The notes under the pieces are model-generated. The model saw nothing but the letters and a program-made list of their open reading frames with translations. It made no database searches and had not been told where the DNA came from. DNA of 64,000 nt from Candidatus Hopanoidivoransaceae bacterium (GTDB taxonomy: Bacteria; Actinomycetota; Acidimicrobiia; Acidimicrobiales; Hopanoidiivorantaceae), in NCBI GenBank assembly GCA_965204495.1, contig OZ241989.1, positions 1,641,214 to 1,705,213 of the forward strand, in the 5' to 3' direction. Both the position numbers and the translations under genes were made by a program. Every line of letters starts with the position of its first letter. Within the stretch, counting starts at the first letter, position 1. Shown here one piece after another: positions 49,101 through 62,646 of the stretch.

Positions 49101-52100
49101 TTGAAAGAAGCCGCGCCCTGCCTGCTCCCGGCGGTGATGATATAGCGGCAGCCCCTCAAAACCACAGAGATCTTGCCGTCTACATCGGTCGGCTCAAAGC
49201 AGAAATAAGTGTTGGCAGTAGAGAGACTGATATGTCTGCTCGCTTCAATCTCTATAGTCCTGCCGGCGGCCACAGACTGGGCGGGGAAGCTGAAAGACCG
49301 AAGATATGTGCCCAGGGATTGCGCCACATTAATGCTGGCTGTAGTCGTGGAGCCCCCAGCCGACCTGAAGCTCACATTAAAGCGGCCGAGGAAAGAAGGC
49401 GAGTAGTCGAAAACGCAGCTGTTGGCAGCGCGGTTGCTGATAGTGCCAGCAGTGGCAGACACAGAAGTGCAGAAAATCTCATAGTCCCCGTCGGTGGCGA
49501 AGCGTGAGAGGTTCACCTTCACACTGTTAGTGAAGAACAGCGTACCGGGAATATTCGTAGTCCGGATATTGGTATCCGGCCCGATATCCACAGTGAATGT
49601 CCCCGTAGTGGAAGACCCGCCAGAGGAGGTGAACATCGCGCTGAAGGTAGTCTCGCCCAGCAAGTTCGCCGCCAGGCTATTAACCGGATTCACCGTATAC
49701 ACGCAGCCTCTGCGAGTAACCGCCATTTTGTCGCTGTCAAAGCCGGTGGCATCCGCGCAGGTGATGGTGTTGGCGCCGTCTTCCACATGGTCGGTGGCGT
49801 CAATCCTCAAAATGCGGTTGCGGGGGACTGCGAGCGCGCCAGGGTCGGTAAACAGAATAGCCACATCGCCGCGGATGTTGACGGTGAAGGTGCCCGTTGT
49901 GCTGCTGCCGCCCTCGGAAGTGAAGACCACTCTGAAGATGGCATTGCCCCACCTGTTGGAAGGCAAGGTGTTCAAGGGATCCACCGTGAAAGCGCAGCCG
50001 TCGCCCGAAGTGCTGCGGGCTACCGACATGCGATATCTTATCAGCCCGAAGCCGATGTTAGGCAAGGTGGATATGTCGAACGCATCCGAGCAAGACACGG
50101 CGTAGGCGGTGTTTTCTCTCACATAGTCCAAAGCATTTATCACCAAAGTCCGGTTCCGCCCCACAGCCGGAACAGCAGGCGCGGTGAAGCTCACGCTGGA
50201 AGGCGGGCCGATGCTGAGATTGACAGTGCCGCTCTGCGTGTCGCCGCCTGTGGAAGTGTAATCCACCACCAAAGTAGCCGCGCCCTGCGCGCTGCCCGCC
50301 GCCAAAGTGAATCTGCAGCCGTTCACCGCAACCGATGTGAGCCTCGCGTGCCGTGTGCTCTGCTGGAAGCCGCACGAGATGGTGTAGCTGCCGTCTGCGG
50401 CATATGCGCCCACATCAATCGTCTTGGTGTTGCCCGCTCCGATCTTCACGGCCGCTGGAGCGGTGAAGACGATATCAGAAACAGGCGTTACGCTCATCGG
50501 AATCACGATGGATCGGGTAGCGCCGCCCGAAGAAGTCACCGGCACCGTGATAGCAACATTCTCCCCCGCTGCCGCAGCTGCTGTAGTTACAGTGAAGACG
50601 CAGTTGTTGCGAACCACCGAAGTGATCTTGGTGCTGTCTATATTGGTGGCATCGGCGCAGGTGAAGGTGTTGGCGCCGTCGGTCACATAGCTGGATGCCG
50701 TGATCTCTATGCTCCGCCCCGCCACCACCGACAGATCAGTGGGAGCTGTGTAGACGATGTTGTTTACATTCACGGTGAATGTGCCCGTGCCCGTGGCGCC
50801 GCCGCTGGAAGAATAAGGCACGGTGAAAGTCCCGTCGCCTGTGGAGGCCGTGCTGGCAATAGTAAACATGCAGCCGTTGCCAGAAGTGCTTCGCACCACC
50901 GAGGAGAACTTGGTGCTGTCAACGCCGGTGGCATCGCCGCAGGTGATCGCGTAAGGCCCGTCCGTAGCAGCGCCAGAGGCGTCTACCACCACCGTGCTGC
51001 TGGCGGACACGAACAGATTCTGCGGCGCGTTGAACGCGATGCTGGAAGCGGGCAGTATCCGCACCGTGACCACGCCGTTCACCTGGGTCGCTCCAGCCGA
51101 AACCTGCGTATAAGGCACATTGAAAGTAACATTTTCAAAAGCACGGCTGATAGGGCTAGGAGCCGGAGCTGTGACATAATACGAGCAGCCCGAACGGGTG
51201 ATAGTGAGCTTGCTGTCGTCTATAGCCGGGCCAGTGGCATCAGCGCAAGTAGCGGCATAATCCGAGCCGGTGAAATAGCTAGCGGCATTCACATAGACGC
51301 TCTCGCCCCCGGCCTGCACAGGCACCACTAATGGGGGAGCGAAGACGATATCCCCAGAAGCAGGCACAGCCATGGCATCCTGGCAGGCAACGGGGTTGAA
51401 GCCTTCGGAGATGGGATAGTCCTGCAGCACATATTGGCTGCTGGCGGTCTGCTGCAAGCCTGTCGGCAATGCTCCGGTGAAGTAGTTCCCGCAGATATAC
51501 ACCTGCCTCACCCCGGTGAATCTATTGCCTGCAGGATTGAGCGTTACCAGATTGCCCACAGCAGCAGGAATAGCACCGGTGAACTGGTTGTTGCTCAAGT
51601 CCAGCCTGAACAGATTCGTGAGACTGGATACACCAGCCGGTACGGAACCCGACAGCCTGTTGCCCTCCAGATCCAAAGTTACAAGGCTGGTGAGCGAACC
51701 TATCCCCGAAGGAATGCTCCCGGTGAGCAGGTTGTTGCTCAGCAGCAGATTCCTCATGGCGGTGAGCGAAGTCAGCTGCGAAGGAATAGAACCAGACAGG
51801 CGATTGCCGCTCAAGTTAAGATGCGTGAAAGCAGTGCTGGAAAGCGAACCCAACTGGCTCGGAATGCTCCCGGTGAGCTGGTTGCTGTCGAGATTCAGCT
51901 GCCTCAGATTGGAAAGCGAGCCCAACTGGCTGGGAATGCTCCCCGAGAGCTCATTACGATGCAGCGACAAGAACTGCAGGCTGCTGAGGTTGCCCAACTC
52001 AGAAGGAATCGGCCCCGAGAAATTATTGTCCGACAGATTAACATCATTCAAAGCAGACATAGACCCCAGCCACGAAGGAATATTCCCGGACAGCATGTGA

Positions 52101-55100
52101 TCGTCAGCTTCCAGCCTCTCCAGCGCAGTCAAATTCTGTATCTCGCTAGGCAAAGTCCCATGCACTATCGTGAATTGGCCCCCTACCGTACTCCTGGTGG
52201 CACTTATCACGAAATCGGTCACACGCCCGCCCGTCACCGTGATACCGATCCAATTCTGAACCAGCCTGTCCGAAGCCGTGCCCGTGCCCCACTCGACAGA
52301 AGCATCCCCCCACTCGCGAAACGCGTGAAACTCGGCCAAATCCCGGTTCGCTTCAAACCCGGCGAAATGATTCTGGATAGCCACCAGAGTCATGCAATCC
52401 TCAGCCAGATCGTTGTTAGCCCCCGTGACTCTCGGATTAGTCGTGAGATTCACGAAAGTCCCGTCCGTGCAACCCGCATTGCTCAAAAGCGGTATAGCCG
52501 TGCCCGACACCGCCCTGCTCACAGACAAAGTAATAGTGCCGGTAAGAGTGTCGCCCCCGCTAGAGGTATAAGGCACCGAAATCGCAGCCGTGCCCGCACC
52601 AGAAACAGCGGTGATGGGAACAACGCAGCCGCTTTGCGTGCCGAGGCTTATCAAAGCAGACGACTCCGCAATAGCCCCGCAAGAAATCGCATAATCGCCG
52701 TCCGCCGCGTAGCTGCTCGCATCCAGCACCAGCACCCGCCCCGCCAGCACCGACAAACTCCCCGCGCCTGTCGTGGGCGGAGCCGTGAAAACAATATCCG
52801 AAAGCGGGCGAATCAGCACAGAAATCACCCCGTCCGCAGAACCGCCCCTGCTGGAGCCATACGGCACAGTGAAACCAGCCGTGCCGCCCGCCCCCGCCCT
52901 AGCAGTAGCAGTAAACGAACAGCCGTTCCCGCCAGAATCGCGCACCACGCTCTGCCACAAAGACGAAACGCTCTCAGCATCACCGCAAGAAATCGTGTAG
53001 CTGCCGTCTGAAGCGTAAGCCGAAGCGTCAATCACGATGCTCTTCGTAGCCTCCACATTCAAACCCGAAGGAAAGCCCGCCACAGGAGCAGTAAAGACGA
53101 TATTAGCAGCCGCGCCCACAACCACAGGCACCACCCCGCTGACCGTAGCCCCCGTCTCAGAAGTATAAGGCACCGTGAAACTAGCCGCGCCCAGCGACGA
53201 GCCAGCAGTAACCCTGAACTCGCAAGTATCGCCCACACGCGCCACCGACGCGATCCTGGCGGTATTAGCAGTCGAATCGCCGCAAGTGACCCCCCAGAAA
53301 CCGCCATCAGTAGCATAGCTAGAAACATCAAACACCAAAGTCCCGCCCGCGCCGATAGCCAGAGCAGAAGGAGCCGTGAAAACCAGATTCCGAGCAGGCC
53401 CCACGCTCACAGGAATCACAGCCTGCCGAGTGTCGCCGCCAGCAGAAGAGTAAGTGATAGTGAAACTAGCCGAACCCGAAGCAGTGCCCGAAGAAGTGGT
53501 GGCGGTGAAAGTGCAAGAACTGCCCGTATGAGCAACCGAAGCCAGATTGCTGGTGAGCGCGCTGGCATCCGAACAAGTCAAAGCATAACTGCCGTCCGCC
53601 GCGAAACCGCCAGCATCAATCTCCAAAGTCCTGCTGCCAGCCTCAATGCGCAGATCGGCAGGAGCGGTATAGGCGATAATGCTGTCAGTGCCGATGTTTA
53701 TAGTGAAAGTGCCTGTAACAGTCGCGCTGCCCGTGGAAGTGAATTCCACAGAAAAAGTAGTATCGCCCTGATAGGACTGGGCGAGAGCGTTTTCGGGATC
53801 AACAGTGAAAGAACACCCATCGCCGGAAGTGCTGCGGGTTACTGTCATCCTGACGGCATCCACGCCTGTGGCATCAGCGCAGGTCACCGTGTATACGCCG
53901 GTTTCTGTGATCTGATCCAAGGCGTCAATCACCAGCGTGTAGTTCCGCCCAACCGTCAGAGTAGGCAGCGCAGTGAAAGCGAGAGTGCTGTCGGGGCCGA
54001 TATTGACAGTGAAAGTGCCTGTAGTCGTGGCACCGCCCGAAGAGGTGAAAGGCACAGAGAAAGTAGTGTCGCCTTGGTCGGCCGGCATCAAGGTGTCTAC
54101 GGGATCTATCGTGAAAGAACAGCTGCTGCCAGTGTGGGTAACAGTCATCTTCGTGGTATCCACTCCGGTGGCATCGCCGCAGGAGAAGGTGAAGCTGCCG
54201 TCGGTCGCGTAGCTGGAAGCGACAAAAGTCCGAGTGCGGTTCCGGGCCACTGTCAGAGTTCCCGGGTCGCTTAAGACAATGTTGGAGTCCGCGCCGATGT
54301 TTATTGTGAAAGTGCCGGTAGTGGTCGTTCCGCCTGTGGTAGTGAAGAGCACAGAGAAAGTCGTATCGCCTTGGTTGGCCGGCGTCAAGGTGTCTACAGG
54401 ATCAACGGTGAAAGAACAGCCATCGCCTGAAGTGCTGCGAGTGACAGTCATCTTGGTGGCATCCACGCCTGTGGGGTCAGCGCAGGTAACCGTGTGCCCG
54501 GTGTTCTCAGAGACATGATCCAAAGCGTCAATAACCAGCGTGTAGTTCCGCCCCACTGTCAGAGTAGACGGAGCAGTGAAAGAGAGATTGGAATCGGGGC
54601 CGATATTGACAGTAACCGTGCCCGTAGTGCTATGCCCGCCGCCTGAGGTGTAAGGAATGGTGAAAGTAGTATCGCCTTGGTTGGCCGGCGCCAGAGTGTC
54701 AACGGGGTCTATCGTGAAATTGCAGCTGCTGCCAGTGTGCGTAACAGCCAGCTTGTTGGCATCCACCCCGGTAGCGTCACCGCAGGTAACCGTGTAGGCG
54801 GGGTCCTCAGTCACATAGCCCAAAGCGTCTATCGCCAAAGTCTGATTCCGCCCGACCGTCAAAGTTCCAGGAGCGGTGTAAGCGACAGTAGATTCAGGGC
54901 CTACTTCAATGCTGATAGTGCCGTTCTCGGTGTCGCCGCCAGTTGAAGTGTAAGGCACCACGAAGCTAGCCGCGCCCTGAACTTGCTTGGGCGTTACAGT
55001 AAACACGCAGCCGCTGCGCGACACCGACATCAGCTCTGTGGTGTCAATGCTGGTGGCGTCCCCGCAAGTGATCGTGAAGTCGCTGTTAGCCTCAGTCGCG

Positions 55101-55927
55101 TAGTCCAACGCGTTGATCGTCTGCGTTCGGTTCGTGCCCACCTTCAACCCAGAAGGCGCGGTGAAGGTGATATTTGAAGCAGTGATCACACGCACAGTAA
55201 CAGTGCCCGTGTGGGTGTCGCCCCCGCTAGAGGTATAAGGAATCGAAATATTGGCGGTGCCCGTGGTGGAGCCGGCATTTACAGTAACATCGCAGCCCTG
55301 CTGATTGGAAAGGCTTATCAGGGCGGACGACTCGGTGATAGTCCCGCAAGTAATCGTGTAGCCGCCGGTGGAAGGACTGCTGTCAGAAGCATAAGTGTCC
55401 ATGCTGAGATTAAGCGAACCGCCGGCTTGGATAGTCGGGGCAGGCGAAGGCGCATTGAAAGTAATATCAGAGTTTCGAACGCAAAGTCGCCAAGTGCCGA
55501 AATCCCTCGTGCCACCACCTTGATGACCCCTCACCTCTCGGCCGCTGACTGCTAGATTTTCGCAGCCAACAGAGGCTGCAGTTTTGGCAGTTACCGTGAC
55601 TCTACAGCGGTTGATAGATACCGTAAACCTGGAAGTTGAAGGAACACTAACCGAACACTGAACATGCCAGTCTTGACCAGGAAAGTTTCTAGCATTAGAG
55701 CTGGTAGCGGGCACATCAACAGTTCTGCTTCCCCCTGGTGCTAATGTAAAACCACCGGCCCAACTGCCTCCGACGTATCCTGCCGCAGGCTGAGACACAG
55801 CCACCGAAACAGCAAATAGCAAAGCCGCGAACAAAGCCGCCGACACGAGCGAAGCGACAACCTTGCGAAGAGCCCGCCGTGCCAGCCGCGCATCACACTG
55901 GGGGGGGGTCTTACGCAGCGACTTCAT
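37199..55927 (-). CDS. Giant (6,242 aa) secreted/surface repeat protein: ~55 two-Cys ~97-aa modules + internal plant-type LRR block + Pro/Thr linker + unassigned C-terminal domain
   Basis: A single uninterrupted ORF of 18,729 nt. It has an N-terminal hydrophobic signal/anchor (VVASLVSAALFAALLFAVSVAVS). The module consensus read by eye is FTAP..L.VGRNRT..IDA..Y......YTI(S/T)C(G/A)DATG.....L.SV.R....C.FT(I/V).P.......G..TF.VPYTS.GG....G..TV.IGP.S.I. Confidence 0.85.
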   Translation of the reverse strand: MKSLRKTPPQCDARLARRALRKVVASLVSAALFAALLFAVSVAVSQPAAGYVGGSWAGGFTLAPGGSRTVDVPATSSNARNFPGQDWHVQCSVSVPSTSRFTVSINRCRVTVTAKTAASVGCENLAVSGREVRGHQGGGTRDFGTWRLCVRNSDITFNAPSPAPTIQAGGSLNLSMDTYASDSSPSTGGYTITCGTITESSALISLSNQQGCDVTVNAGSTTGTANISIPYTSSGGDTHTGTVTVRVITASNITFTAPSGLKVGTNRTQTINALDYATEANSDFTITCGDATSIDTTELMSVSRSGCVFTVTPKQVQGAASFVVPYTSTGGDTENGTISIEVGPESTVAYTAPGTLTVGRNQTLAIDALGYVTEDPAYTVTCGDATGVDANKLAVTHTGSSCNFTIDPVDTLAPANQGDTTFTIPYTSGGGHSTTGTVTVNIGPDSNLSFTAPSTLTVGRNYTLVIDALDHVSENTGHTVTCADPTGVDATKMTVTRSTSGDGCSFTVDPVDTLTPANQGDTTFSVLFTTTGGTTTTGTFTINIGADSNIVLSDPGTLTVARNRTRTFVASSYATDGSFTFSCGDATGVDTTKMTVTHTGSSCSFTIDPVDTLMPADQGDTTFSVPFTSSGGATTTGTFTVNIGPDSTLAFTALPTLTVGRNYTLVIDALDQITETGVYTVTCADATGVDAVRMTVTRSTSGDGCSFTVDPENALAQSYQGDTTFSVEFTSTGSATVTGTFTINIGTDSIIAYTAPADLRIEAGSRTLEIDAGGFAADGSYALTCSDASALTSNLASVAHTGSSCTFTATTSSGTASGSASFTITYSSAGGDTRQAVIPVSVGPARNLVFTAPSALAIGAGGTLVFDVSSYATDGGFWGVTCGDSTANTARIASVARVGDTCEFRVTAGSSLGAASFTVPYTSETGATVSGVVPVVVGAAANIVFTAPVAGFPSGLNVEATKSIVIDASAYASDGSYTISCGDAESVSSLWQSVVRDSGGNGCSFTATARAGAGGTAGFTVPYGSSRGGSADGVISVLIRPLSDIVFTAPPTTGAGSLSVLAGRVLVLDASSYAADGDYAISCGAIAESSALISLGTQSGCVVPITAVSGAGTAAISVPYTSSGGDTLTGTITLSVSRAVSGTAIPLLSNAGCTDGTFVNLTTNPRVTGANNDLAEDCMTLVAIQNHFAGFEANRDLAEFHAFREWGDASVEWGTGTASDRLVQNWIGITVTGGRVTDFVISATRSTVGGQFTIVHGTLPSEIQNLTALERLEADDHMLSGNIPSWLGSMSALNDVNLSDNNFSGPIPSELGNLSSLQFLSLHRNELSGSIPSQLGSLSNLRQLNLDSNQLTGSIPSQLGSLSSTAFTHLNLSGNRLSGSIPSQLTSLTAMRNLLLSNNLLTGSIPSGIGSLTSLVTLDLEGNRLSGSVPAGVSSLTNLFRLDLSNNQFTGAIPAAVGNLVTLNPAGNRFTGVRQVYICGNYFTGALPTGLQQTASSQYVLQDYPISEGFNPVACQDAMAVPASGDIVFAPPLVVPVQAGGESVYVNAASYFTGSDYAATCADATGPAIDDSKLTITRSGCSYYVTAPAPSPISRAFENVTFNVPYTQVSAGATQVNGVVTVRILPASSIAFNAPQNLFVSASSTVVVDASGAATDGPYAITCGDATGVDSTKFSSVVRSTSGNGCMFTIASTASTGDGTFTVPYSSSGGATGTGTFTVNVNNIVYTAPTDLSVVAGRSIEITASSYVTDGANTFTCADATNIDSTKITSVVRNNCVFTVTTAAAAAGENVAITVPVTSSGGATRSIVIPMSVTPVSDIVFTAPAAVKIGAGNTKTIDVGAYAADGSYTISCGFQQSTRHARLTSVAVNGCRFTLAAGSAQGAATLVVDYTSTGGDTQSGTVNLSIGPPSSVSFTAPAVPAVGRNRTLVINALDYVRENTAYAVSCSDAFDISTLPNIGFGLIRYRMSVARSTSGDGCAFTVDPLNTLPSNRWGNAIFRVVFTSEGGSSTTGTFTVNIRGDVAILFTDPGALAVPRNRILRIDATDHVEDGANTITCADATGFDSDKMAVTRRGCVYTVNPVNSLAANLLGETTFSAMFTSSGGSSTTGTFTVDIGPDTNIRTTNIPGTLFFTNSVKVNLSRFATDGDYEIFCTSVSATAGTISNRAANSCVFDYSPSFLGRFNVSFRSAGGSTTTASINVAQSLGTYLRSFSFPAQSVAAGRTIEIEASRHISLSTANTYFCFEPTDVDGKISVVLRGCRYIITAGSRQGAASFNVNFSITSGEVRSAAVAVNVGPASSIVFNAPAGLQVGRNRTLAIDATDYATDSSYTITCGDATGVDSTKLTSVSRNGCVFTVDPINSLVAGSQGDTSFTVPFTSSGGDTATGTFTVNIGPDSTITYTAPGALEIGRNFTLVIDASDYVSEISGSGYTIACSDAAGVAANRMAVARTANTCEYTVAPVGNSEANAADRLAPALQGDTTFAITFASTGGHTITRTLTINIGPDSDPMFTAPATNPAVGASLTRAVDVSSYATDGNYTISCGTISTTDADITLGTQTGCSVMITSVATTPQTADITIPYTSSGGGSTTGTLTLDVGVASNIVFTAPTGLKVGINRTQTIDASDYAADGGNTISCGTATNVDTTRLASVVRDTSGNGCGYTITPISTLTPAQQGTANFTVPYTSSGGDTQNGVIAIEVGPASNIVYTSPGTLSVARNLTLEIDASGYAADNAAYTISCGDATGVASARLAVTHTGSSCDFTIDPVDALAPGDQGTTTFTIPFTSDGGATGTGTVTVNIGPDSALTFTAPGTFTLGRNRTLVIDASAAISGENAAYTVSCADATGADATRMTVTRSTSGDGCSFTVDPVDTLAVGSQGDTTFSVAFSSTGGATATGTFTVNIGPDSTITANIPPATGAGRLQVARNLTLEIDASDYVAETSGSGYTISCSDARSIHSRLTSVARTASTCTYTIDPVNSATSGTATFVVTFTSTGGHSIVRTITVNVGPNSAITFTAPPTSGANRLLVGRNRTLAVDAGSYASETSGSGYTITCGDAVSIDTARLASVTHTGSSCSFTVTPVSSLSSSLQATNATFTVPYASSGGATADGIISVKVGPDSTITYNAPTLARGSNLRTFTIDASDYVSETSGSGYTISCGTATSVDTTEITSVTRLSNSCRYRIVLNGTQGSTGFTVPYTSTGGHAISRAVQITVGAASAIVFSAPASNPAVAASRTLTLDVGSYAADGSYTISCGTITESSALISLGNQTQGSCSIPIIAGTSTGTAAISVPYISSGGATLTRSITIDVGGASNISFTAPSDLKVGINRTQTINALDYASDSGYTITCGTATSVDTTRLTSVVRDASGNGCGYTITPISTLTQSQQGAASFTVPLTSDGGDTENAVFSIAVGPASTITFTPPSALLVPKNRTLVVDAAPYAVEANPTNYAISCGDATSIDTVELQSVTRTANTCTFTITPKNVAGSASFTVPYTSEGGHSVNGAIPVTVGTDSTITYSSPGTLTVGRNRTLTIDASGYVEEIASSGHTITCSDASGVDNTKLTSVTRTANTCSYTITPITTLTPALQGDTTFSITFTSSGGHEITRTITVNVGPDSTIVFTPPASNPAIAASRTRTIDVSSYAADGSYTISCGAITESSALISLGSQTGCSIPVTSGSSMGTATISIPYRSSGGHTLTSSLSIDVGAASSIVFTAPTGLKVGTNRTQTINALDYASDGGYTITCGTATNTGANVPTSGTVALASVVRDSSGNGCGYTITPTATQGTATFTIPYTSAGGDTSSENISITVGPPSTIVYSSPGTLRVGRNQTLEINASGYVSDNSAYTITCADATGVIATRMAVSRTANSCTFTIDPVDALAPANQGTTTFTIPFTSDGGHSITRTITVNIGPDSNLTFTAPSTFTLGRNRTLVIDALAAISGENAAYTVSCADATGVDANKMTVTRSSSGNGCSFTVDPVDTLATGSQGDATFSVPYTSTGGASASGTFTVNIGPDSTITANIPPATGANRLLVARNLTLEIDASDYVTEASSGYTISCSDARSIHSRLTSVARTANTCRYTIDPNNFAFPGAATFVVTFASTGGHSIDRTITVNVGANSAITFTPPPTTGANRLLVGRNRALVVNAGSYARETIGSGYTITCGDATSIDTTRLASVTHTGSSCSFTVTPVSSLSSTLQATNATFTVPYSSTGGATANGTISVKVGPDSTITYNAPTLERGNNLRTFTIDASDYVSETASSGYTISCGTATSVDTTEITSVTRLSNSCRYRIVLNGTQGSTGFTVPYTSTGGHAISRAVQITVGAASSIVFSAPSSNPAVAASRTLTLDVSSYATDGSYTISCGTITEFSALISLGAQTGCSIPITAATSTGTAFISVPYISSGGATTTRSISIDVGVASNIQFTAPSDLKVGINRTQTINALDYATDSGYTITCGTATSIDTTKLTSVARDSSGNGCGYTITPISTLTQSQQGSANFTVPLTSDGGDTENAVFSITVGPASTITFTPPSPALSVAKNRTITVDVSGYAVEANPTNYAISCGDATSIDTVELQSVTHTGRSCTFTINPKNVAGSASFTVPYTSEGGHSVAGAISVTVGPDSNIVYTPPTGLRVARNRTLEIDATDHFTESSTYTVTCGDATGIDNTRLTSVARTANTCTFTVDPVDTLAAGLQGNTTFTVPLSSTGGHARNALFTVNVGPDSNIVFAAPTGLKVGRNRTLAINALAAVTENPAYTVTCADATGVSANRMTVTRSSTGSRCVFTVDPVDTLATGLQGNTTFAVAFTSTGGATASGTFTVNIGPDSTITYNAPTGLLVGRNRTLTIDASGYVSESDSNNTITCGDATAIHSRLTSVARTANSCSYTIDPNNFATVGTATFAIAFTSDGGHTRTETISVEVGPDSNIRFTAPPTSGPNRLRIGRNLTLSIDALDYVNENAAYTVTCGDATGVDAARLTVTHTGSSCDFTIDPVDTLAQSLQGNTSFTIPYTSDGGATATGRITVNIGPDSAITFTAPTGLKIGRNRTLVIDALAAVSGENAAYTVSCADATGVDANRMTVTRSSSGSRCSFTVDPVDTLAVGSQGDTTFVVAFSSTGGATASGTFTVNIGPDSAIVYTAPAGLQVGRNRTLSVDLSNAATDGSYTVTCGDATNVHSRLSSVTRPDAQASPCVFAAAPRTTASLGTATFRVPFTSDGGATSTGTVSIAISQPSTIVFTAPDPALKIGINRTRTIDALDYVRDGNYTITCLDATGVDSTKLTSVTRSSSGNGCGYTINPISSLTQSQQGDATFTVPYRSAGGHVLNQEFTIGVGPASTIVYTAPVGANALTVGHNRTLTIDASSYATDGSYTISCGDARSIHARIDHITRNGCSFTITPVSGMTGAATFTIPYSSDGGHTRDGQVSVTIGAASNIVYSAPSGIVIPVSTARTIDVGSYAADGSYAISCGDATGVNASRLASVTHTGSSCSFEITAAANQGATSFVVPYRSAGGAALSGTISLSVGPASSIVFTAPSGLDVHVGETLLVHANDYASDGPYSLQCADATNRSASLTSVVRTANTCDFTITPGSSTGTGTFNVPYTSSGGATHTGTISVNISPQSTITFTAPTGLSVAAGRQITVDASTAADTGYTVSCGDATAVNPRIASVSRTGCSYAVRAGSIAGSASFTIPFTSTGGATLNSQIAITIGPRSSIAFTAPTGLSVQIGSTLTIDASDYAADSAYTITCGDATGVPSVFASVARTANTCNFVVTPGTSTGSGSFTVPYSSSGGATRNGSITVAVTPTSSIVFAPPPISGPDRLRIGAGNTRTISLASYATDGPYSITCGNATATEPAKLTDIHRNGCRYTITAAATAAQGNTTFTLTYTSSGGNTNNASFTINIGPASDIVYTAPADITLQANSAQGIDLSSYATDGTGNDAYTIGCLDATDIDPEISSVTRNGCVYTIRAGSTPGEADFHITYTSTGGDTHLATVHITITPAPVEPEERPAGPIQPIDPPARRPTPPPPTTTTTTTIPDPSRPTTTLEPDQPGPRWNTLTAQQGGTTPGQIRQAFNLGSTQTIYTWNTARQTWTRATRSSQAIPAGTRVSFRTEEAVTNREMRTSNLGGGTTRMRLTTGWSTLSIPQGITRTDDTDFLLDPTLTDCRNQQGIIAIASYSTRSRRWSISLPCHPTAQRRLTTGENAPYRPLMSIAPADTTYIFTRTRQPLTIRWNEDTQTYQVFQSIFTR
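51470..52500 (-). other. LRR block inside the giant ORF: LRRNT-like cap plus ~9-10 plant-specific-type 24-residue LRRs
   Basis: Approximate residues 1150-1485. The sequence reads ...NWIGITVTGGRVTDFVIS... then LTALERLEADDHMLSGNIPSWLGS / MSALNDVNLSDNNFSGPIPSELGN / LSSLQFLSLHRNELSGSIPSQLGS / LSNLRQLNLDSNQLTGSIPSQLGS, and so on. Confidence 0.8.
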
Positions 55928-56050
55928 TTTGACCTCACGCCGTGCCAGCCGCGCATCGCACGGGGGGGGGTCGCAGACGGCGATTTCATGCCAGCCTCAA
56001 GCCGCGCCAGCCGCGCATCGCACGGGGGGGGGGTGTCGTAGATGACTTTT
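55870..56050 (-). repeat. Triplicated ~62-nt start/leader unit of the giant gene, each copy with a poly-C (minus strand) tract: C9 (55900-55908), C9 (55962-55970), C10 (56024-56033)
   Basis: Minus-strand reading gives three units. Unit 1 is ATGAAGTCGCTGCGTAAGA-C9-AGTGTGATGCGCGGCTGGCACGGCGG. Unit 2 is ATGAAATCGCCGTCTGCGA-C9-GTGCGATGCGCGGCTGGCACGGCGTGAGGTCAAAATGA. Unit 3 is AAAAGTCATCTACGACA-C10-GTGCGATGCGCGGCTGGCGCGGC. Confidence 0.9.
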
Positions 56051-56079
56051 TCCTATAGGGGATTAATCTCATGTAAGGC

Positions 56080-56108
56080 ATTATAGCAATCAGAAGTATG
56101 TTTGACAC
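56080..56108 (-). promoter_or_regulatory. Candidate sigma-70-type promoter for the giant gene (GTGTCA-17 nt-TATAAT)
   Basis: Minus-strand TATAAT lies at 56085-56080 and GTGTCA at 56108-56103, in the only AT-rich stretch upstream of the leader repeats. This is sequence pattern only. Confidence 0.4.
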
Positions 56109-56170
56109 AGCATGACAAACAAAAAAATTGTGAGATTTTTACAGGTCAAGAATCCCCCCCCGCCATATCG

Positions 56171-56354
56171 CCAGCCGCCGACCCTAGCCCTACCCAGCCG
56201 CCGACCCTAGCCCTACCCAGCCGCCGTGCCTAGCCCTACCCAGCCGCCGTGCCTAGCCCTAGCCAGCCGCCGAGCCTCGCCCTAGCTAGCCGCCGAGCCT
56301 CGCCCTAGCTAGCCGCCGAGCCTCGCCCTAGCTAGCCGCCGAGCCTCGCCCTAG
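56171..56354 (+). repeat. 23-bp tandem array x8 (ccagccgccgagcctcgccctag family) with stepwise variant gradient
   Basis: The units, read directly, are 2x ccagccgccgaccctagccctac, ccagccgccgtgcctagccctac, ccagccgccgtgcctagccctag, ccagccgccgagcctcgccctag and 3x ctagccgccgagcctcgccctag. Confidence 0.9.
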
Positions 56355-56599
56355 CTAAGCGGCTGCGCTCCACAAGATGATCCGGGAGCTTCCCCAGCAG
56401 CGCAGCAGCTTCCATGCCAGTGTGGATGTGCGGCGCATCGGCTTGAAACAGCGCAGAAGACGCCTTCAGTTTCGCTTTCGGCGAGCGTGTGTTTTCTGCA
56501 GGTAACCTGCAAGAGTTCCCTAGAGGGTAGAGTTGCGGGGTGACGCTGACACGGCATCTGGTCTGCTGTCTTGTGGCTGAACCGCATAGTCAACAGCGA
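56355..56599 (+). repeat. Island scaffold element, full copy I: modules M1 (56357-56421), M2 (56422-56478), M3 (56479-56530), M4 (56535-56599)
   Basis: The same modules recur in whole or in part at 59025-59116 (M4'), 59623-59712 (23-mer + M1), 60127-60183 (M3), ~61429-61586 (diverged M2-M3), 62288-62586 (23-mer-like + M1-M3) and 63448-63572 (M3-M4). Confidence 0.85.
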
Positions 56600-56925
56600 A
56601 GCGGGCGGGCATATGACTGCCGAGTGCTGCTCAGAATTCTAGAAGGCTGTATTAGGGTTTTGCTGTTTCAGACTTGACAATCTCTCTTTTATGTGCTAAA
56701 GTGATCATGTGAAGAAAATGTGCCACAGCAAAATAGAGGAGAAGTTCCTCTTTCTGACCCGCAGCAGAGCCAATCTGCTGTGTCTGGCTTGCAGCATGGT
56801 GTGGAAGTTGAAGCAAGAAGTATCAACGAAGCAGTGCCGAGGGGTTGCCACGCAATTGACAGTTGTGGTAGAGATAACTGCCAGTGTTTGTATATTTGTA
56901 CAAAGATGTCTACAGAAAGGTTCGG

Positions 56926-58764
56926 ATGATGACTAGACTGCAATTTGACATTACTCCGTTTCTTGAACGAGAGGAGGGTCAGACATTTGAACGCAAATCG
57001 CTGTTTGAGGGCAAGCCGGGAAGCAAAAGCTCTCGGGATCGCAGAGTTATTCGCGATCAGATCGCCAGGTGGGTTGCTGGGTTTGCCAACGCTGACGGCG
57101 GCGTATTGATTCTGGGAATTGAAGACGATTTCTCTATTACTGGGCATGATCTAAGACCTGCCGACTTAAATACTCTTCTCAAAGTACCTGAGGATCGCTT
57201 AGATCCGGCACAAGAAAAAGGGTTTGTGATAAATATAGGTGAGTACGAACTCATTGTTTTTGATGTGCGAGCTTCAGATACTGAAGTAATGGTGATTGGC
57301 GACGGTTTCCCTTTGCGCATTGGTGACACAACTACGGAAGTGTCAGTTGAAGAAATTCGTTCAAGTAAGTTTTCCAGTATGTCTGAAAGCTGGTCAAGTC
57401 GCTCTTCATCTGGTTTGTTAGAGGATTTGGATGAAGAACTTCTGGGAGAAGCCAAAAAATCAGCTGGAAAAGAAAGTTGGACTGATGAAGAGTATCTGTT
57501 GCGTAGCAGTATGGCTCACAGAAGAGGACGACAAGTGATACTAAGAAATGCAGCAGAGTTGTTATTTAATCCATATGGCGGGAGTCACACAAACGCTGGT
57601 ATTCGAATTTTCCAGGTTGTTGGGACTGAACTACTGAGCGGAACAGAATACAATGCGAAAGAAATTGATCGTATTGAAGGGAACCTTCCCACGATTGTAG
57701 AAGAAGCAAGTTCAAGAATTTTGAATTTGCTTAAATCCTCAACGCCAATAATGGGTGGGAAATTTCGAGAAGTGCCTGAATATCCTTATTTTGCTTGGCA
57801 AGAAGCACTTGTCAATGCCGTCCTCCATAGAGATTATGCTGTTGAAGGGCAGTGCATAGAAATTCATTTATACAATGATCGTATCGAAATAACAAACCCT
57901 GGTGGGCTAGTTAAAGATGTTGATTTCGAAAAACTGATAAATTTGGAACGTGTTCACCGCAGTCGCAATTCTCTTATTGCCAAAGCAATGACTGATTTAG
58001 GTATAGTTCGCGACCAGGGTGAAGGAATTCCCCGTATGTTTTCTGAAATGGAGGATGCATTTCTCCCGAAACCGATAATAGAAACAAGTAATTTAGAATT
58101 TAAAGTCACTTTGAGGAATACTCCCACTTTAACCGCAGCTGACAAAAAATTTATTTCCCGACTAGGAAATTCACAATTTTCTGATGTAGAATTTAGAGCT
58201 TTGTTGCAAGCTCATCGCTATGGAAAGGTGGATAACGCATATTTGAGAAACCGATGTGGCCTTGATACTCTGAAATCAAGCAAACTTTTGAGCGGACTTT
58301 GTGATCAAAAATTTCTTAAGCTTCACCCACACGGACCCAATAGCTACTATACTCTCTCTGATTCTCTAGTTTCGCAAAACTATACAAATAATCTACCGCA
58401 GGAGAACGACGACAGAAATATGTCCAAAGCAGACAATGTTGCTTCAGATTCTGGTGAGACTCCCTTTAATGAAAGCAAACTTTTTGAGTCTCTCAGGGGT
58501 GACATAGACAATCTTGGCAAACGCCCAAGACGAGAAAAGCTGCGTCCGATAATCCACAAATTATGCTCACAGAATAGATGGATGACTTTAAATGAATTAT
58601 CTTCAATTTTGGGATACAGCCGAGGCGGGAATTTGAGAGATCACTTAAATCAAATGATAGATGAAGGTCAGATTGAACGGCGCTTTCCTCACAACCCCAA
58701 ACACCCTAAACAAGCATATCGCGCTACAAACACATTCTATGAAGATCCTAAGCAGGATTCATAG
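56926..58764 (+). CDS. AlbA_2 (Schlafen-like DNA-binding) + HATPase_c_4-type ATPase protein with C-terminal wHTH-like region
   Basis: Motifs EGQTFERKS...IARWVAGFANADGGVLILGIEDD and EALVNAVLHRDY are present. I placed the start at ATGATG 56926 (AAAGG 6 nt upstream) rather than the GTG at 56884. The gene is visibly AT-richer than the rest of the window. Confidence 0.7.
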   Translation: MMTRLQFDITPFLEREEGQTFERKSLFEGKPGSKSSRDRRVIRDQIARWVAGFANADGGVLILGIEDDFSITGHDLRPADLNTLLKVPEDRLDPAQEKGFVINIGEYELIVFDVRASDTEVMVIGDGFPLRIGDTTTEVSVEEIRSSKFSSMSESWSSRSSSGLLEDLDEELLGEAKKSAGKESWTDEEYLLRSSMAHRRGRQVILRNAAELLFNPYGGSHTNAGIRIFQVVGTELLSGTEYNAKEIDRIEGNLPTIVEEASSRILNLLKSSTPIMGGKFREVPEYPYFAWQEALVNAVLHRDYAVEGQCIEIHLYNDRIEITNPGGLVKDVDFEKLINLERVHRSRNSLIAKAMTDLGIVRDQGEGIPRMFSEMEDAFLPKPIIETSNLEFKVTLRNTPTLTAADKKFISRLGNSQFSDVEFRALLQAHRYGKVDNAYLRNRCGLDTLKSSKLLSGLCDQKFLKLHPHGPNSYYTLSDSLVSQNYTNNLPQENDDRNMSKADNVASDSGETPFNESKLFESLRGDIDNLGKRPRREKLRPIIHKLCSQNRWMTLNELSSILGYSRGGNLRDHLNQMIDEGQIERRFPHNPKHPKQAYRATNTFYEDPKQDS

Positions 58765-58808
58765 ATACAACCCATAATCCCCAATAGTCGTGATATTTGG
58801 AGAGTCCT

Positions 58809-59033
58809 ATGTCTGAAAGATTATTGGCTCGTATCCCCGAAGCTGCTGGTCGTATCCCCGAAGCTGCTGGTCGTATCCCCGATGCTGTTGGTCGTATCCC
58901 CGATGCTGTTGGTCGTATCCCCGATGCTGTTGGTCGTATCCCCGATGCTGTTGGTCGTATCCCCGATGCTGCTGGTCGTATCCCCGAAGCTGCATTGACA
59001 CCCCAAATGCAAAATATTTCTATAGCGGGGTGA
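58809..59033 (+). CDS. Possible 74-aa heptad-repeat micro-protein (MSERLLA-[RIPEAAG/RIPDAVG]x8-LTPQMQNISIAG)
   Basis: ATG at 58809 is preceded by GGAGAG 4 nt upstream. The body is the 21-bp tandem array, and the stop TGA lies inside module M4'. The coding status is unresolved because the opposite strand is also open. Confidence 0.35.
   Translation: MSERLLARIPEAAGRIPEAAGRIPDAVGRIPDAVGRIPDAVGRIPDAVGRIPDAAGRIPEAALTPQMQNISIAG
58827..58994. repeat. 21-bp tandem array x8 (ggtcgtatccccgaWgctgYt)
   Basis: The units were read directly. The outer units carry gaagctgct and the central four gatgctgtt. It is the same unit as the 16-copy array at 63573-63908. Confidence 0.95.
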
Positions 59034-59116
59034 CGCTGACACGGCATCTGGTCTATGCCGCTCCTTGCGGCTCGTCTGCGGCTTTGCTGGTGAGACGTCA
59101 GAGCCTCAACAGCGAA
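59025..59116 (+). repeat. Module M4' (conserved M4 ends gcggggtgacgctgacacggcatctggtct ... caacagcgaag with a different internal core)
   Basis: Direct comparison with 56535-56601 and 63505-63569. Confidence 0.75.
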
Positions 59117-59120
59117 GAGT

Positions 59121-59282
59121 TCAGAAAGAAGATTTTTTGGACTCCACTCTGAACGCCTGAACGAGTTCAGGGTCGCTCGTGTCGATCTGGGCGTTGCGGA
59201 GGACTTCCTCAACGGTGACCTCTTGGTTTTTCTTCGCTCTAGTGGCTCTGGGCCGGGAAGTGGCTTTGGATGCTTTCTTCAT
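59121..59282 (-). CDS. Small basic hypothetical protein (53 aa)
   Basis: Not in the track in this frame. ATG at 59282-59280 is preceded by AGAGAGGAAACAACCA (a strong SD). The product is MKKASKATSRPRATRAKKNQEVTVEEVLRNAQIDTSDPELVQAFRVESKKSSF, with stop TGA at 59123-59121. Confidence 0.5.
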   Translation of the reverse strand: MKKASKATSRPRATRAKKNQEVTVEEVLRNAQIDTSDPELVQAFRVESKKSSF

Positions 59283-59622
59283 TGGTTGTTTCCTCTCTTG
59301 TTATAGGAGACAATACTAGCATAATTATGACCAACGGCGTGAAAATCGCAAAAAGTGTGATATAGCGACGGGTGTGCCCAAGAATTTCGTCGCGCTCGTC
59401 TTCTTCCGCCACTCTCCTTACGCGCCAAAATCTCGCCTTGTATCGCATCTGAAGCCCAGCGCGAACTAGTGTAGCAGGACCTGCTGGGTTGCGGCGCGCT
59501 TTTCGGCGGTGGGTTTCGCTGGTTGCGGTTGTGTGGCTGTCCACGGCAGACTAGCCGCTGTCGGGAGCCACCGCAGGGTTTCGGCTTGTGAGCATCTGCC
59601 GCTTGCGCTGCCAGAAACACCG

Positions 59623-59712
59623 CCAGCCGCCGAGCCTCGCCCTAGCCAAGCGGCTGCGCTCCACAAGATGATCCGGGAGCTTCCCCAGCAGCGCAGCAGC
59701 TTCCATGCCAGT
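59623..59712 (+). repeat. One 23-mer unit + module M1
   Basis: ccagccgccgagcctcgccctag + ccaagcggctgcgctccacaagatgatccgggagcttccccagcagcgcagcagcttccatgccagt. Homology to copy I stops abruptly after ...gccagt. Confidence 0.85.
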
Positions 59713-59852
59713 AGCGTGCGAAGAAAAGGTTGCTTTTCCACTGAAAATGTGATATGGTTCTAGACATGAACAGATGCGTAGCCGTGAAGAGCGGAGCCAC
59801 CCGCCGCGTAGCGCGACGCAGCTACGCAGACGGTGCTAAAAGGAGCATCTCA

Positions 59853-60014
59853 ATGAAAATAAAAAGAAAAAAGGCATCGTCATCAGAACAGGCACCACTT
59901 CCGCGCGAGTTTCGTGCTGAAGACATTGTGCAAATCCCTGTTGGGGGCACAGGCAAGCCTTCACCCGATTCGCCTTTATACAACAAGTGGAAGGAGCAGA
60001 ACGGCAAAAAGTAG
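59853..60014 (+). CDS. Small hypothetical protein (53 aa)
   Basis: ATG at 59853 is preceded by AAAAGGAG 7 nt upstream. The product is MKIKRKKASSSEQAPLPREFRAEDIVQIPVGGTGKPSPDSPLYNKWKEQNGKK. The track ORF 59754-60014 is the same frame with an unlikely upstream start. Confidence 0.5.
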   Translation: MKIKRKKASSSEQAPLPREFRAEDIVQIPVGGTGKPSPDSPLYNKWKEQNGKK

Positions 60015-60126
60015 TTCTGCTCTGCTTCACAACCTGAAACCGAGACAGCAGGCACGCATCTGACGTGCCCGTATCACTCTGCTTGTCTTGGGAATTCAAG
60101 CAATTCACTTGCCGAGAACACCTGTT

Positions 60127-60183
60127 CGCCGAGCGTGTGTTCTCAGCAGGCGACCTGCAAGAGTTTCCTAGAGGCTAAGTTTG
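60127..60183 (+). repeat. Module M3 (solo copy)
   Basis: cgccgagcgtgtgttctcagcaggcgacctgcaagagtttcctagaggctaagttt. Confidence 0.8.
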
Positions 60184-60215
60184 CGTTTTGGGTTTTGTAG
60201 CTGGGTGTAGCAGTC

Positions 60216-60392
60216 ATGGCAAATAAATCTTCGAGTCCGCTGAATTTCGCGCCGTCTACTATTTTCACGGGCGATAATCTGCCTGTGATGCGTGGGATGA
60301 ATTCTGAGAGTGTGGATTTGATCTATTTGGATCTGCCTTTCAATAGTAAAGCTAATTACGCGGCACCTAAGCGGCTGCCAAGCAGCTTATGA
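60216..60392 (+). pseudogene. 5' fragment (58 codons) of an N6/N4 DNA methyltransferase
   Basis: MANKSSSPLNFAPSTIFTGDNLPVMRGMNSESVDLIYLDLPFNSKANYAAPKRLPSSL*. The N-terminal pattern of beta-class amino-MTases is present, with the DPPF motif degraded to DLPF. The reading frame ends about 50 aa into what should be a protein of more than 250 aa. Confidence 0.65.
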
Positions 60393-60814
60393 AGCAGGCG
60401 GACAAACAAGCGACGTAGCCGATTGAGTAGCAATGGACCAAGCTGCCATCCGAAGCCTATGGCTTGATCGGTCAACGCGTCCTTCATGTCTTTGTAGTGT
60501 TCGTTGGTTTCCCATGCGACAGTGACATGCGACGGCACAGGGTGACCGTCGCATTTGGGGTAGATATTGAACTGATGGAATGTTCCGGCTGTTACTGCAA
60601 CGACCCCTACAATTTGCGATTTGTCTGTTTCGGTTGTGCGCCGATAGTTCTTCAGAGCTTCTTTTGGTGTGTCTACAGTTGAGAGGTACAGAGACAACTT
60701 TTTCTCTTTCCTAGCGGAAAAAACTGTCTCCCTCAGATCGCTGATATTACCAGATGGACAATCCCATGTTTTAACTATCCGGTAGAGTCTTGCGTCGCCG
60801 TGGAGTTCTTCCAT
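60356..60814 (-). CDS. Hypothetical protein (152 aa), distal gene of an overlapping pair
   Basis: ORF-track entry. AAAGG lies upstream of the ATG. No family was recognised. Confidence 0.5.
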   Translation of the reverse strand: MEELHGDARLYRIVKTWDCPSGNISDLRETVFSARKEKKLSLYLSTVDTPKEALKNYRRTTETDKSQIVGVVAVTAGTFHQFNIYPKCDGHPVPSHVTVAWETNEHYKDMKDALTDQAIGFGWQLGPLLLNRLRRLFVRLLHKLLGSRLGAA

Positions 60815-61188
60815 TCCGATACCTTTCGAGAAAGCGTCTTCCAGCCTTCGCCTTTCAACGTATGCTGACCTTTTCCATGTGGCGCTAAGTCGTGAAGTAT
60901 CCTATGCTCTGCTTGTCTGGAAGGCAGATGCACATCTACACGCAAAGAATCAGAAGGATTCCGCCACACCAAAAGAATGTTGCCATCCTCTGCTGGCTGC
61001 ACCAGCGGGCAACCTATGTCGTTCTTGTCCAAGATGTTAACAGTGAAGTCTTCCAAAAAGCCTTCCAGTCCTTCCAGTCCGACAGGGTGGACGCCCCCAT
61101 CCTGATTCGGATCCGCGTCAATATAGCGTTGCAGGTTTTCTGTCATGTCGCGGACACGGTTGTCGTCTAGGTCTTTACCGGTAGTCAT
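60775..61188 (-). CDS. Hypothetical acidic protein (137 aa), proximal gene of an overlapping pair
   Basis: I placed the start at ATG 61188-61186, preceded by GAAAGAGAGGAAAAA (a strong SD). The track start 61224 has no SD. Confidence 0.5.
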   Translation of the reverse strand: MTTGKDLDDNRVRDMTENLQRYIDADPNQDGGVHPVGLEGLEGFLEDFTVNILDKNDIGCPLVQPAEDGNILLVWRNPSDSLRVDVHLPSRQAEHRILHDLAPHGKGQHTLKGEGWKTLSRKVSEWKNSTATQDSTG

Positions 61189-61428
61189 TTTTTCCTCTCT
61201 TTCAGTGTTTTGTTGCGGAGTCATCTGATTCCACTATAGCCTATGTGCGATGCAGTCTCCTATCCACTAGCGGTTCCGGCTAATGTTTCTGCTCTGCTCA
61301 TGGTTCAAGTATACATTAACTTTTTCGCGTTTGCAACGCATGCACTTGAAATTTGCCAATTCAGGAAATTTCCTCATTCTGGAACCGCCCCAGCGAAAAA
61401 TCGCTATCGCAGCAGCGTCTGCCGCCTC

Positions 61429-61586
61429 CGTCGATGTGCGCTGGGGGACCACCAGCCCAGCGGCGGCAGGAAACCCGGCGGCGAGTGCGCCCGTTCGTTG
61501 AAGCCGCGAGGCCCTGCCGCGTGGATCTCCCTGCTGCTGCAAGACACCTGTCAGCTTCGGCGAGCGTGTGTTCACTGCGGGTGACC
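61429..61586 (+). repeat. Diverged M2-M3 copy
   Basis: gtcgatgtgcgctggg...cctgtcagcttcggcgagcgtgtgttcactgcgggtgacc versus gtggatgtgcggcgca...ccttcagtttcgctttcggcgagcgtgtgttttctgcaggtaacc. Confidence 0.45.
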
Positions 61587-61709
61587 TTCTGCCGTTCACC
61601 AGAACGAACAGATAAACACCAACCTGCCGCGTTCCTGCGCCAGTCTGCTATCATAGATGTCATGTCTCCAAACCTCAATCCCCTGAATCAATGAAAGAAG
61701 GTTAGCACG

Positions 61710-62586: not shown

Positions 62587-62646
62587 TTATATATTAATAA
62601 ATAAAAATCTGGCAAAGATGAAGTCATAAGAAGTGACGAAAATCTT

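Follow-up and report, generated by a model that had tools for sequence, protein, structure and literature searches.

Does a run of nine cytosines near the start of a very large bacterial gene switch that gene on and off, and what is contributed by the two further copies of the same start lying upstream of it? These questions are raised by a 64,000 nt stretch of contig OZ241989.1 (hereafter the window), the minus strand of which carries an open reading frame (ORF) of 6242 codons, or 18.7 kb, listed at 37199–55927. It opens with the codons ATG AAG TCG CTG CGT AAG ACC CCC CCC CAG, and its predicted product is a giant repetitive protein with an N-terminal signal peptide. A first-pass annotation of this DNA had read the start as a phase-variable contingency locus; all of its coordinates check out, and the analysis reported here leads us to favour, with some reservation, the more specific explanation that the run within the giant ORF is a putative frame switch for a giant secreted protein, operating through slipped-strand mispairing.

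Three poly-C tracts lie in a triplicated start unit

The run in question, tract 1 (C9; 55900–55908, on the minus strand, as are the other features of this locus unless stated), occupies codons 7 to 10 of the giant ORF, where both the sequence and the ORF listing place it in accordance with the original description. Two further runs are found upstream, tract 2 (C9; 55962–55970) and tract 3 (C10; 56024–56033), within short upstream ORFs termed uORF2 and uORF3 respectively. All three form part of a tandem triplication of a 62/63 nt start unit (55866–56064), each copy of which is composed of the pre-tract codons, the poly-C run and the sequence GTG(C/T)GATGCGCGGCTGGC(A/G)CGGC. This threefold repetition of about 62 nt, which had already been noted, was recovered by Tandem Repeats Finder (period 62, 2.5 copies, 84% matches, 55875–56032), by a repeat finder that placed three copies 63 and 62 nt apart, and by a three-copy alignment with a mean column identity of 80%; a 23 nt core, GTGYGATGCGCGGCTGGCRCGGC, occurs three times against an expectation of zero. 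A search with the exact pattern of tract and core (CCCCCCCN{0,3}GTGYGATGCGCGGCTGG) found nothing in the GTDB representative genomes or the JGI metagenome contigs.

Tracts 1, 2 and 3 are the only homopolymers of at least 9 nt in the window. A first-order Markov model predicts 0.63 C/G runs of this length per 64 kb, against three observed, all within 134 nt, and none of 60 simulations clustered three such runs within 200 nt. The tracts are not independent events, however, because they were copied together by the duplication of a single unit. Outside the locus, the window has no C/G run of at least 8 nt, where 1.9 would be expected. The additional C8 run reported at 56154–56161 is present, but it is C on the plus strand and hence G8 on the sense strand of the gene; it lies 46 nt upstream of the −35 hexamer, outside the predicted transcript. 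A G-quadruplex or i-motif was considered and dropped, given the spacing of about 53 nt between runs and the position of the fourth (56154–56161) on the opposite strand.

Tract 1 alone sets the frame of the giant ORF

The start region was rebuilt in silico with 48 combinations of tract lengths (C8–C11, C8–C11 and C8–C10). The giant ORF was in frame from ATG 55927 only if the length of tract 1 was divisible by three: C9 yields the 6242 aa product, C10 one of 11 aa and C8 one of 61 aa. A slip of one nucleotide in either direction does, as had been claimed, frameshift the giant ORF, leaving a product of only 11 or 61 residues. A slipped tract 1 was not rescued by any length of tracts 2 or 3, and the first-pass proposal that the three tracts jointly control the frame has to be abandoned, since in the enumeration tract 1 alone decides it. 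With C10 in tract 2, uORF2 fuses in frame to the giant ORF, in agreement with the earlier prediction, and a single continuous ORF from ATG 56072, the start of uORF3, requires C11 or C8 in tract 3, C10 in tract 2 and C9 in tract 1. In all other states each uORF ends 4 nt into the next ATG (ATGA) or, in the other wrong frame, 7 nt before it (TGAGG). Because every state either stops close by or fuses, the upstream copies appear to constitute a leader that delivers ribosomes near the next ATG.

Codons 1–50 of the giant ORF (55778–55927) were judged by eye, from the translation, to be signal-peptide-like, with a basic n-region (MKSLRKTPPQCDARLARRALRK), a hydrophobic core (VVASLVSAALFAALLFAVSVAV) and then SQPAAG; the same hydrophobic region and an AVSQPAAG motif are found in the family members P0019, P0033, P0020, P0044, P0060 and P0015. 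The first in-frame ATG, GTG or TTG downstream of tract 1 is a GTG at codon 28, inside this hydrophobic core, which makes a start beyond the tract, a possibility raised in the first-pass annotation, implausible for the giant gene: the C9 run lies inside its only plausible coding start. A twin-arginine-like ARRALRK in the n-region (55866–55877, codons 17–20) was considered as a Tat signal and rejected, RR being absent from the other family members.

Under the proposed switch, C9 (or C6, or C12) at tract 1 would allow ATG 55927 to read into the signal peptide and the 6242-codon ORF, while C8 or C10 would lead to a stop after 61 or 11 codons, and no protein would be exported. Were replication slippage to alter the length of the run at appreciable frequency, the result would be that a secreted or surface protein is turned ON or OFF heritably but reversibly. 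It might instead be supposed that the tract is static, with the C runs merely encoding Thr-Pro-Pro(-Pro) in the n-region, perhaps as an EF-P-dependent pause, and changing slowly, such that other frames seen in relatives reflect drift, pseudogenisation or assembly error. We consider this unlikely. Pro-Pro-Pro does not require a homopolymer: the proline codons of the giant gene are CCG (100), CCT (96), CCC (83) and CCA (14), and each of the 16 other PP, PPP or PPPP motifs in the gene avoids CCC-CCC. Further evidence bearing on the static alternative comes from related genes.

Related genes carry a tract at the same position

An N-terminal query from the giant protein matched only the protein of a near-identical strain, L001, which is discussed below. 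A query from the repeats of another contig recovered 70 fragmentary relatives, all in ENA metagenome assemblies; for those that share the signal peptide at their N-terminus, the encoding DNA was located. Five other family genes were found to have a C9 or C10 run between the common signal peptide and a start composed of TANNNT, 7–8 nt and ATG. In L084 (C9) and L085 (C10) the first ATG reads in frame into the signal peptide. It is out of frame in the other three, all of which have C9: L086, on a 1x contig, needs C10, whilst L088, which has an ATG directly after the tract, and L089 each need C8 or C11. L087, an ortholog of L086, has AACCACCTTTCCCCAGTCCGC in place of a tract and its first ATG is in frame; P0078, the only extra protein from a profile search for N-termini, is another tract-less copy of the L087 type. 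The more distant members L090–L092 have no tract. In all nine of the closer loci (the window and eight others), TANNNT is followed after 7–8 nt by the first ATG, without a Shine-Dalgarno sequence. A −10 element of the form TANNNT that ends about 6–8 nt ahead of the start codon, in the absence of a Shine-Dalgarno sequence, is typical of leaderless genes in Actinobacteria.

The 5' end missing from L082 had been sought with the adjacent 417 aa; the 757 aa fragment was not recovered, but it was this search that revealed the family. A scan of the JGI metagenomes with a signal-peptide profile gave 358 pattern hits and no confirmed relative.

The placement of the tracts weighs against a static role. 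Within 155 kb comprising the window and the family loci, all homopolymers of at least 8 nt are found at such 5' ends, runs of this length being otherwise absent, and 426 kb of unrelated loci contain a single C/G run of at least 8 nt. The run recurs at an equivalent position in no fewer than six independent genes, whose flanking sequences have diverged. That the segment ahead of it is translated is indicated by the comparison of L084 with L085, the 27 pre-tract codons of which (17.7 synonymous and 63.3 nonsynonymous sites) have six synonymous and six nonsynonymous codon differences in the frame of the first ATG; the corresponding synonymous:nonsynonymous counts in the other two frames are 2:10 and 1:9. 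As the synonymous excess appears in that frame and not in the others, the pre-tract segment evolves as coding sequence from the first ATG. Hence a family design consisting of a first ATG, a few codons, poly-C and a signal peptide, with the tract inside the predicted coding sequence, is supported.

The length of the tract also differs between copies of one gene. The protein P0075, which begins MKPPENKVANQESSHYNAWYESVFDDPPPIVIMKIVKVF, clusters with the L089 protein at 90% identity and is encoded on another contig; to obtain its exact N-terminus from the L089 DNA, the C9 has to be replaced with C10. One and the same gene is thus C9 in one assembly but C10 in a second, which the static explanation does not anticipate; neither does it anticipate out-of-frame states in scaffolds of high-coverage style (L088, a 274 kb scaffold, and L089). 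Gene callers truncate or extend family genes at the tract (P0015 versus P0075), and because of this, signal peptides and true starts are mis-assigned across the family.

Taken together, the two available strains agree in tract 1 (C9) and differ in tract 2, L089 differs from P0075, and L086 has a tract where L087 has none, some of these contigs being at 1–4x coverage. The locus has a long 5' G/C tract (such runs are usually of about 7 nt or more), the placement of which is non-random; a change of one nucleotide in it is predicted to abolish the full-length product, and the opposite change to restore it. These are the features of a homopolymer contingency locus at the level of sequence. The contingency-locus interpretation of the first-pass annotation is thereby strengthened by the recurrence of the tract in family genes, by the in-frame and out-of-frame states and by the one C9/C10 difference, the differences in length being those between assemblies. 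We infer that reversible slippage at tract 1 may occur at high frequency.

Several observations weigh against a switch. In the cluster to which L088 belongs, all four members start at the ATG after the tract and none is in frame with the first ATG; the chance of finding no in-frame member there is about 0.2, and these starts would also be explained if that paralogue began translation after its tract. The window and L001 do not differ in tract 1, tract 3 or the G8 run. As tract 3 and G8 are under no obvious selection for frame, their identity argues against very fast switching, or else the divergence is very recent. Several of the comparison contigs are at 1–4x coverage, and L001 carries two single-nucleotide indels that break its giant ORF, so that single-base tract differences in low-coverage contigs could be errors. 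The identity of these tracts between strains, the other indel errors of low-coverage contigs and the ability of L087 to function without a tract are equally the points in favour of a static tract, as is the behaviour of the G/C tracts of Cutibacterium acnes considered below.

That the first ATG and the signal peptide are in different frames at three of the five family tracts, the downstream ORFs being intact, could also be taken to mean that the frame is set at the level of RNA or the ribosome, through polymerase slippage or +1/−1 frameshifting on CCC-C, with the tract tuning the amount of product from a fixed DNA template. A mixture of frames would result, and even genes that are out of frame would be expressed in part. 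RNA polymerase is known to slip on runs of nine or more identical bases, and tRNA-Pro to shift frame by +1 on CCC-C; transcriptional slippage has nevertheless been documented best at A/T runs, less so at C runs. We regard such recoding as very doubtful. In the window, as in L001, ATG 55927 opens the giant ORF in the correct frame, and no recoding is needed; there is no sign of a stimulatory RNA structure (fold z-score of 0.10, no Rfam match); and it is the length of the DNA tract itself that differs between assemblies.

Two side observations concern the family as a whole. Positions 1–138 of L085 contain the end of an upstream ORF matching the family C-terminal domain, and after a further 70 nt or so come the promoter and tract of the next family gene (compare L084, 1–1408), which suggests that family genes may sit head-to-tail in arrays. 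Giant family genes are split into several ORFs in almost every assembly, one Illumina-type scaffold included (L084, 3350–3424; L001; L082 and L083); these splits could be assembly errors in repeats or real frameshifts.

A near-identical strain retains the triplication

L001 is a 96 kb contig, labelled 4x, of ENA assembly ERZ26167708. Its flanks are 99–100% identical to those of the window, and the body of the giant gene is 90–97% identical; the drop in identity covers window positions 44916–55927 (L001 10001–21026), and the 6 kb of upstream flank is again 99–100% identical. The giant gene, to judge from this alignment, is evolving far more rapidly than the DNA around it, whether through diversifying selection or through recombination between repeats, as would be expected of a variable surface protein.

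The same triplicated unit is found in L001, and the triplication is therefore real rather than an artefact of assembly. Tract 1 (C9), tract 3 (C10) and G8 are identical to those of the window. Tract 2 is C10 followed by an extra A, a 2 nt 'CA' insertion relative to the C9 of the window, as a result of which uORF2 has 18 codons and ends at the TGAGG stop, ATG 55927 remaining in frame with the giant ORF. Since this insertion breaks copy 2 in a different way and leaves copy 1 untouched, the upstream copies look unconstrained as coding sequence. The giant ORF of L001 is itself broken by two 1 nt insertions (11013 and 19060), one of them in a C run, both of which are probably errors of low coverage.

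Comparison of the two strains also bears on whether the tract lengths have been called correctly. Long homopolymers tend to be under-called, and the observed lengths (C10, C9 and C9 for tracts 3, 2 and 1) fall exactly one base short, at the two longest tracts, of the sole combination that gives a continuous ORF (C11 or C8, C10, C9). Were the true lengths C11, C10 and C9, the locus would be a continuous ORF from ATG 56072 with a triplicated N-terminal extension. This is highly improbable. L001 likewise has no continuous ORF, for a different cause (C10 plus the extra A in tract 2, where C9 would be needed); the 'CA' insertion is not a homopolymer miscall; and ATG 55927 is in frame with the giant ORF in both assemblies.

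Upstream of the promoter in the window is a tandem array of a 23 nt unit (8.1 copies, 56170–56355, detected by repeat finders). In L001 this array (9550–9745) has about one unit more, through a 24 nt insertion, and is hence a variable-number repeat. Short tandem repeats also precede the promoters of L084 (22 nt, two copies, near 1400–1445) and L090 (11–12 nt units).

The predicted leader is a chain of two uORFs

A promoter-like site lies at 56080–56108, with a −35 hexamer GTGTCA (56108–56103), a 17 nt spacer and an extended-TG −10 element, TGc-TATAAT (56085–56080), and corresponds to the promoter proposed in the first-pass annotation; three sites of this kind are found in the region against 0.4 expected. 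The first ATG downstream of the −10 box, which had been overlooked, is ATG 56072, just 7 nt after TATAAT and without a Shine-Dalgarno sequence. This short distance indicates that the mRNA is probably leaderless, with a putative transcription start at about 56072. From this ATG, uORF3 (MRLIPYRKKSSTTPPPRAMRGWRGLRLA; 28 codons, 55986–56072) runs through tract 3 to a TGA that overlaps ATG 55989 as ATGA. From ATG 55989, uORF2 (MKSPSATPPRAMRGWHGVRSK; 21 codons, 55924–55989), preceded by GAGG (55998–55995), runs through tract 2 to a TGA that overlaps the main ATG in the same manner, as had been described and as the ORF listing confirms. The TPPPCDARLAR reading of copy 3 fares less well: it is open and shares its frame with ATG 55989, yet there is no start codon from which it could be entered.

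The three ORFs are in three different reading frames, linked by stop-start ATGA overlaps at 55989/55986 and 55927/55924. GAGG is found at a 5 nt spacing before both ATG 55989 and ATG 55927; at the latter it is part of a Shine-Dalgarno-like GAGGT (55936–55932) that, with a 4 nt spacer and the ATG (55927–55925), occupies 55925–55936. Ribosomes would load on the 5'-terminal AUG (around 56072) and be relayed to ATG 55927 by way of the two overlaps, the geometry of which suggests reinitiation; alternatively, they would bind directly at the GAGGT-ATG of 55927. As the main ATG has its own GAGGT, translational coupling may be dispensable.

A conserved core, GTGYGATGCGCGGCTGGC, follows each tract, and might be thought to mark a structured RNA leader or a protein-binding element, such as a riboswitch, an attenuator or a poly(C)-binding site. 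Such an element is extremely improbable: the predicted fold (−88.4 kcal/mol) is no more stable than that of shuffled sequence (−88.9 kcal/mol; z-score 0.10), there is no match to an Rfam family at E values up to 1, and the core is simply n-region coding sequence (CDARLAR), absent from the other family loci.

Hence the layout proposed for the family would be a TANNNT −10 box, 7–8 nt, a first ATG, 5–28 codons, C9–C10 and a signal peptide. The step specific to the window would be the tandem triplication of the tract-bearing start unit, the two upstream copies of which now form the short uORFs of 28 and 21 codons. Replication slippage at the tract is consistent with the properties of the actinobacterial NucS mismatch repair system, which leaves indels uncorrected (PMC8228993). 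A more elaborate scheme is conceivable, in which the lineage, possibly one associated with sponges, has a genome-wide contingency system, a poly-C run between a leaderless start and the signal peptide gating the export of an entire family of giant, eukaryote-like surface proteins with plant-type leucine-rich repeats (LRRs), and the triplicated gate of the window acts as a multi-state device with graded rather than binary output. Tract 1 would then be the ON/OFF master, while tracts 2 and 3 would choose between read-through, giving N-terminal extensions of 21 or 49 residues, and stop-start reinitiation; we think this distinctly unlikely.

If the switching at tract 1 is real, uncultured actinobacterial symbionts or environmental Acidimicrobiia would share stochastic surface variation with mucosal pathogens, and would apply it to giant proteins with plant-type LRR ectodomains, 'eukaryote-like proteins' of the sort thought to mediate host recognition. 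The ratio of in-frame to out-of-frame states at a defined 9 nt site should be readable from existing metagenomic reads across host individuals.

Comparison with known phase-variable systems

Contingency loci had been described in the first-pass annotation as rarely reported in high-GC Gram-positive bacteria, a view that is dated given the precedents in Gardnerella, Bifidobacterium, Cutibacterium and Mycobacterium tuberculosis. The closest analogue of the tract 1 locus is nanH3 of Gardnerella piotii, in which a C8–C14 run is found about 100 nt into the ORF, by the signal-peptide region of an extracellular sialidase; full-length protein is encoded only at lengths divisible by three (C9, C12), and length heterogeneity has been shown experimentally in clone libraries (bioRxiv 10.1101/2020.09.16.300947). 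The two cases resemble one another in having an actinobacterial host and a gene for a protein that is, or here is predicted to be, extracellular and cell-associated, and in that frame-shifted alleles are annotated from a downstream start, without the signal peptide, as in L086, L088 and L089. They differ in that the nanH3 tract follows the signal peptide, whereas tract 1 precedes the hydrophobic core; in that heterogeneity was detected there in clone libraries and here only as differences between assemblies; and in that nanH3 has neither a triplicated start unit nor a chain of uORFs.

Intragenic G-tracts form a demonstrated ON/OFF replication-slippage switch in the sortase-dependent pilus of Bifidobacterium breve UCC2003, and equivalent tracts are found in related genes across the genus, much as in the present family (PMC9187656). 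That system was characterised through maximum-depth sequencing and in vivo enrichment, whereas the present locus is described from sequence; its products are pilins rather than a 6242 aa repeat and LRR protein, and the position of the tract relative to the start also differs. In Cutibacterium (Propionibacterium) acnes, another actinobacterium, for which leaderless transcripts have been noted, 54 G/C tracts have been catalogued; the polymorphic tracts, of which nearly all are G/C, lie in or upstream of genes, including those for putative surface adhesins (PMC4746626). Their variation is, however, clade-bound, and was judged to reflect slow accumulation rather than active switching (PMC4746626), which counts against a switch in the window and in favour of a static tract.

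The phase variants of M. tuberculosis affecting glpK and ESX-1 arise through reversible frameshifts in short C/G runs (PMC10334774, PMC11898584, bioRxiv 10.1101/717272). The host is again an actinobacterium without MutS/L indel repair; the tracts, in contrast, are of about 7 nt and are found in metabolic and secretion genes, not at the junction of start codon and signal peptide in a family of surface proteins. With the classical contingency loci of Neisseria, Haemophilus, Campylobacter and Helicobacter (PMC5084427 and PMC8355987, for instance), the present locus has in common 5'-coding G/C tracts in genes for surface proteins, a separate tract for each paralogue and ON/OFF states determined by length modulo three. 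The classical hosts, by contrast, are pathogens, Gram-negative or epsilonproteobacterial, in which rates of switching have been measured. In the present case the organism is an uncultured environmental or host-associated actinobacterium, the start is probably leaderless and the tract unit is tandemly triplicated.

Leaderless translation is familiar in Actinobacteria, as are uORFs coupled through ATGA stop-start overlaps. The two successive ATGA overlaps that chain uORF3, uORF2 and the main ORF are comparable, both the coupling and the leaderless start being suggested here by geometry only. We know of no described arrangement in which a chain of two tract-bearing uORFs has arisen from duplication of a gene's own start. 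What distinguishes the present locus is the combination of a tract that precedes the signal-peptide core on a probably leaderless mRNA, a giant product with plant-type LRRs, and a start triplicated into a chain of two uORFs.

The giant protein and its lineage

Downstream of the signal peptide, the giant protein is composed of dozens of repeats of about 95–100 aa, a block of plant-type LRRs, a Pro/Thr-rich linker and a C-terminal domain of about 190 aa. The repeats match no Pfam family, and a comparison of the repeat region with the PDB gave nothing meaningful (best E value 0.45). The LRR block (51428–52627, minus strand; approximately residues 1100–1500) has Pfam LRR matches, and its phmmer matches in the PDB include the plant receptors GSO1 (E value 8e-131), FLS2 (3e-112) and PEPR1 (2e-103). 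It is, on these similarities, a eukaryote-like ectodomain of the plant receptor-kinase type embedded in a predicted bacterial giant protein.

The C-terminal domain (37202–37801, minus strand), which follows the Pro/Thr-rich linker, is 43–47% identical to the small family members P0060 and P0015, and has W, C, H and P positions that are invariant among them. It has no Pfam match, and the AlphaFold2 model built with three sequences was unusable (mean predicted local distance difference test score of 45.7). It may serve as an anchoring or export domain. Anchor motifs were looked for in the giant protein and none was found; the signal-peptide-like N-terminus, the LRRs of extracellular type and the fast divergence of the gene body suggest that the protein may be exposed at the surface.

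The indolepyruvate oxidoreductase encoded in the window has best identities of 47–48% to Acidimicrobiales metagenome-assembled genomes, Candidatus Poriferisodalis and Candidatus Microthrix; in L086, L087 and L088 the family members have WhiB genes as neighbours, and L090 contains a CrgA gene. On the basis of these matches and neighbours, the lineage is actinobacterial and probably Acidimicrobiia-like, without a close representative genome. The names of the best taxonomic hits, together with the naming of the samples, hint at a possible origin in sponges; a search of the literature for the sample accessions found nothing.

The surrounding DNA

The region adjoining the start of the giant gene (56400–64000) is of low GC content, at 0.49–0.52 against about 0.58 elsewhere, and contains many small ORFs. 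A protein with Schlafen/AlbA_2 and HATPase_c_4 domains is encoded at 56884–58764 and partially matches a pAgo-associated PADLOC model (E value 2e-25), and two small ORFs at 60356–61224 match the candidate defence pair PDC-M32A/B. Hence this region may be a defence or mobile island. A 21 nt unit, TCGTATCCCCGATGCTGCTGG, forms two arrays about 5 kb apart, of 7.9 copies (58829–58993) and 16 copies (63570–63906), the first of which has a 63 nt gap, equivalent to three units, in L001. A further array of 24/49 nt units (62292–62422) is related to the 23-mer found upstream of the giant-gene promoter.

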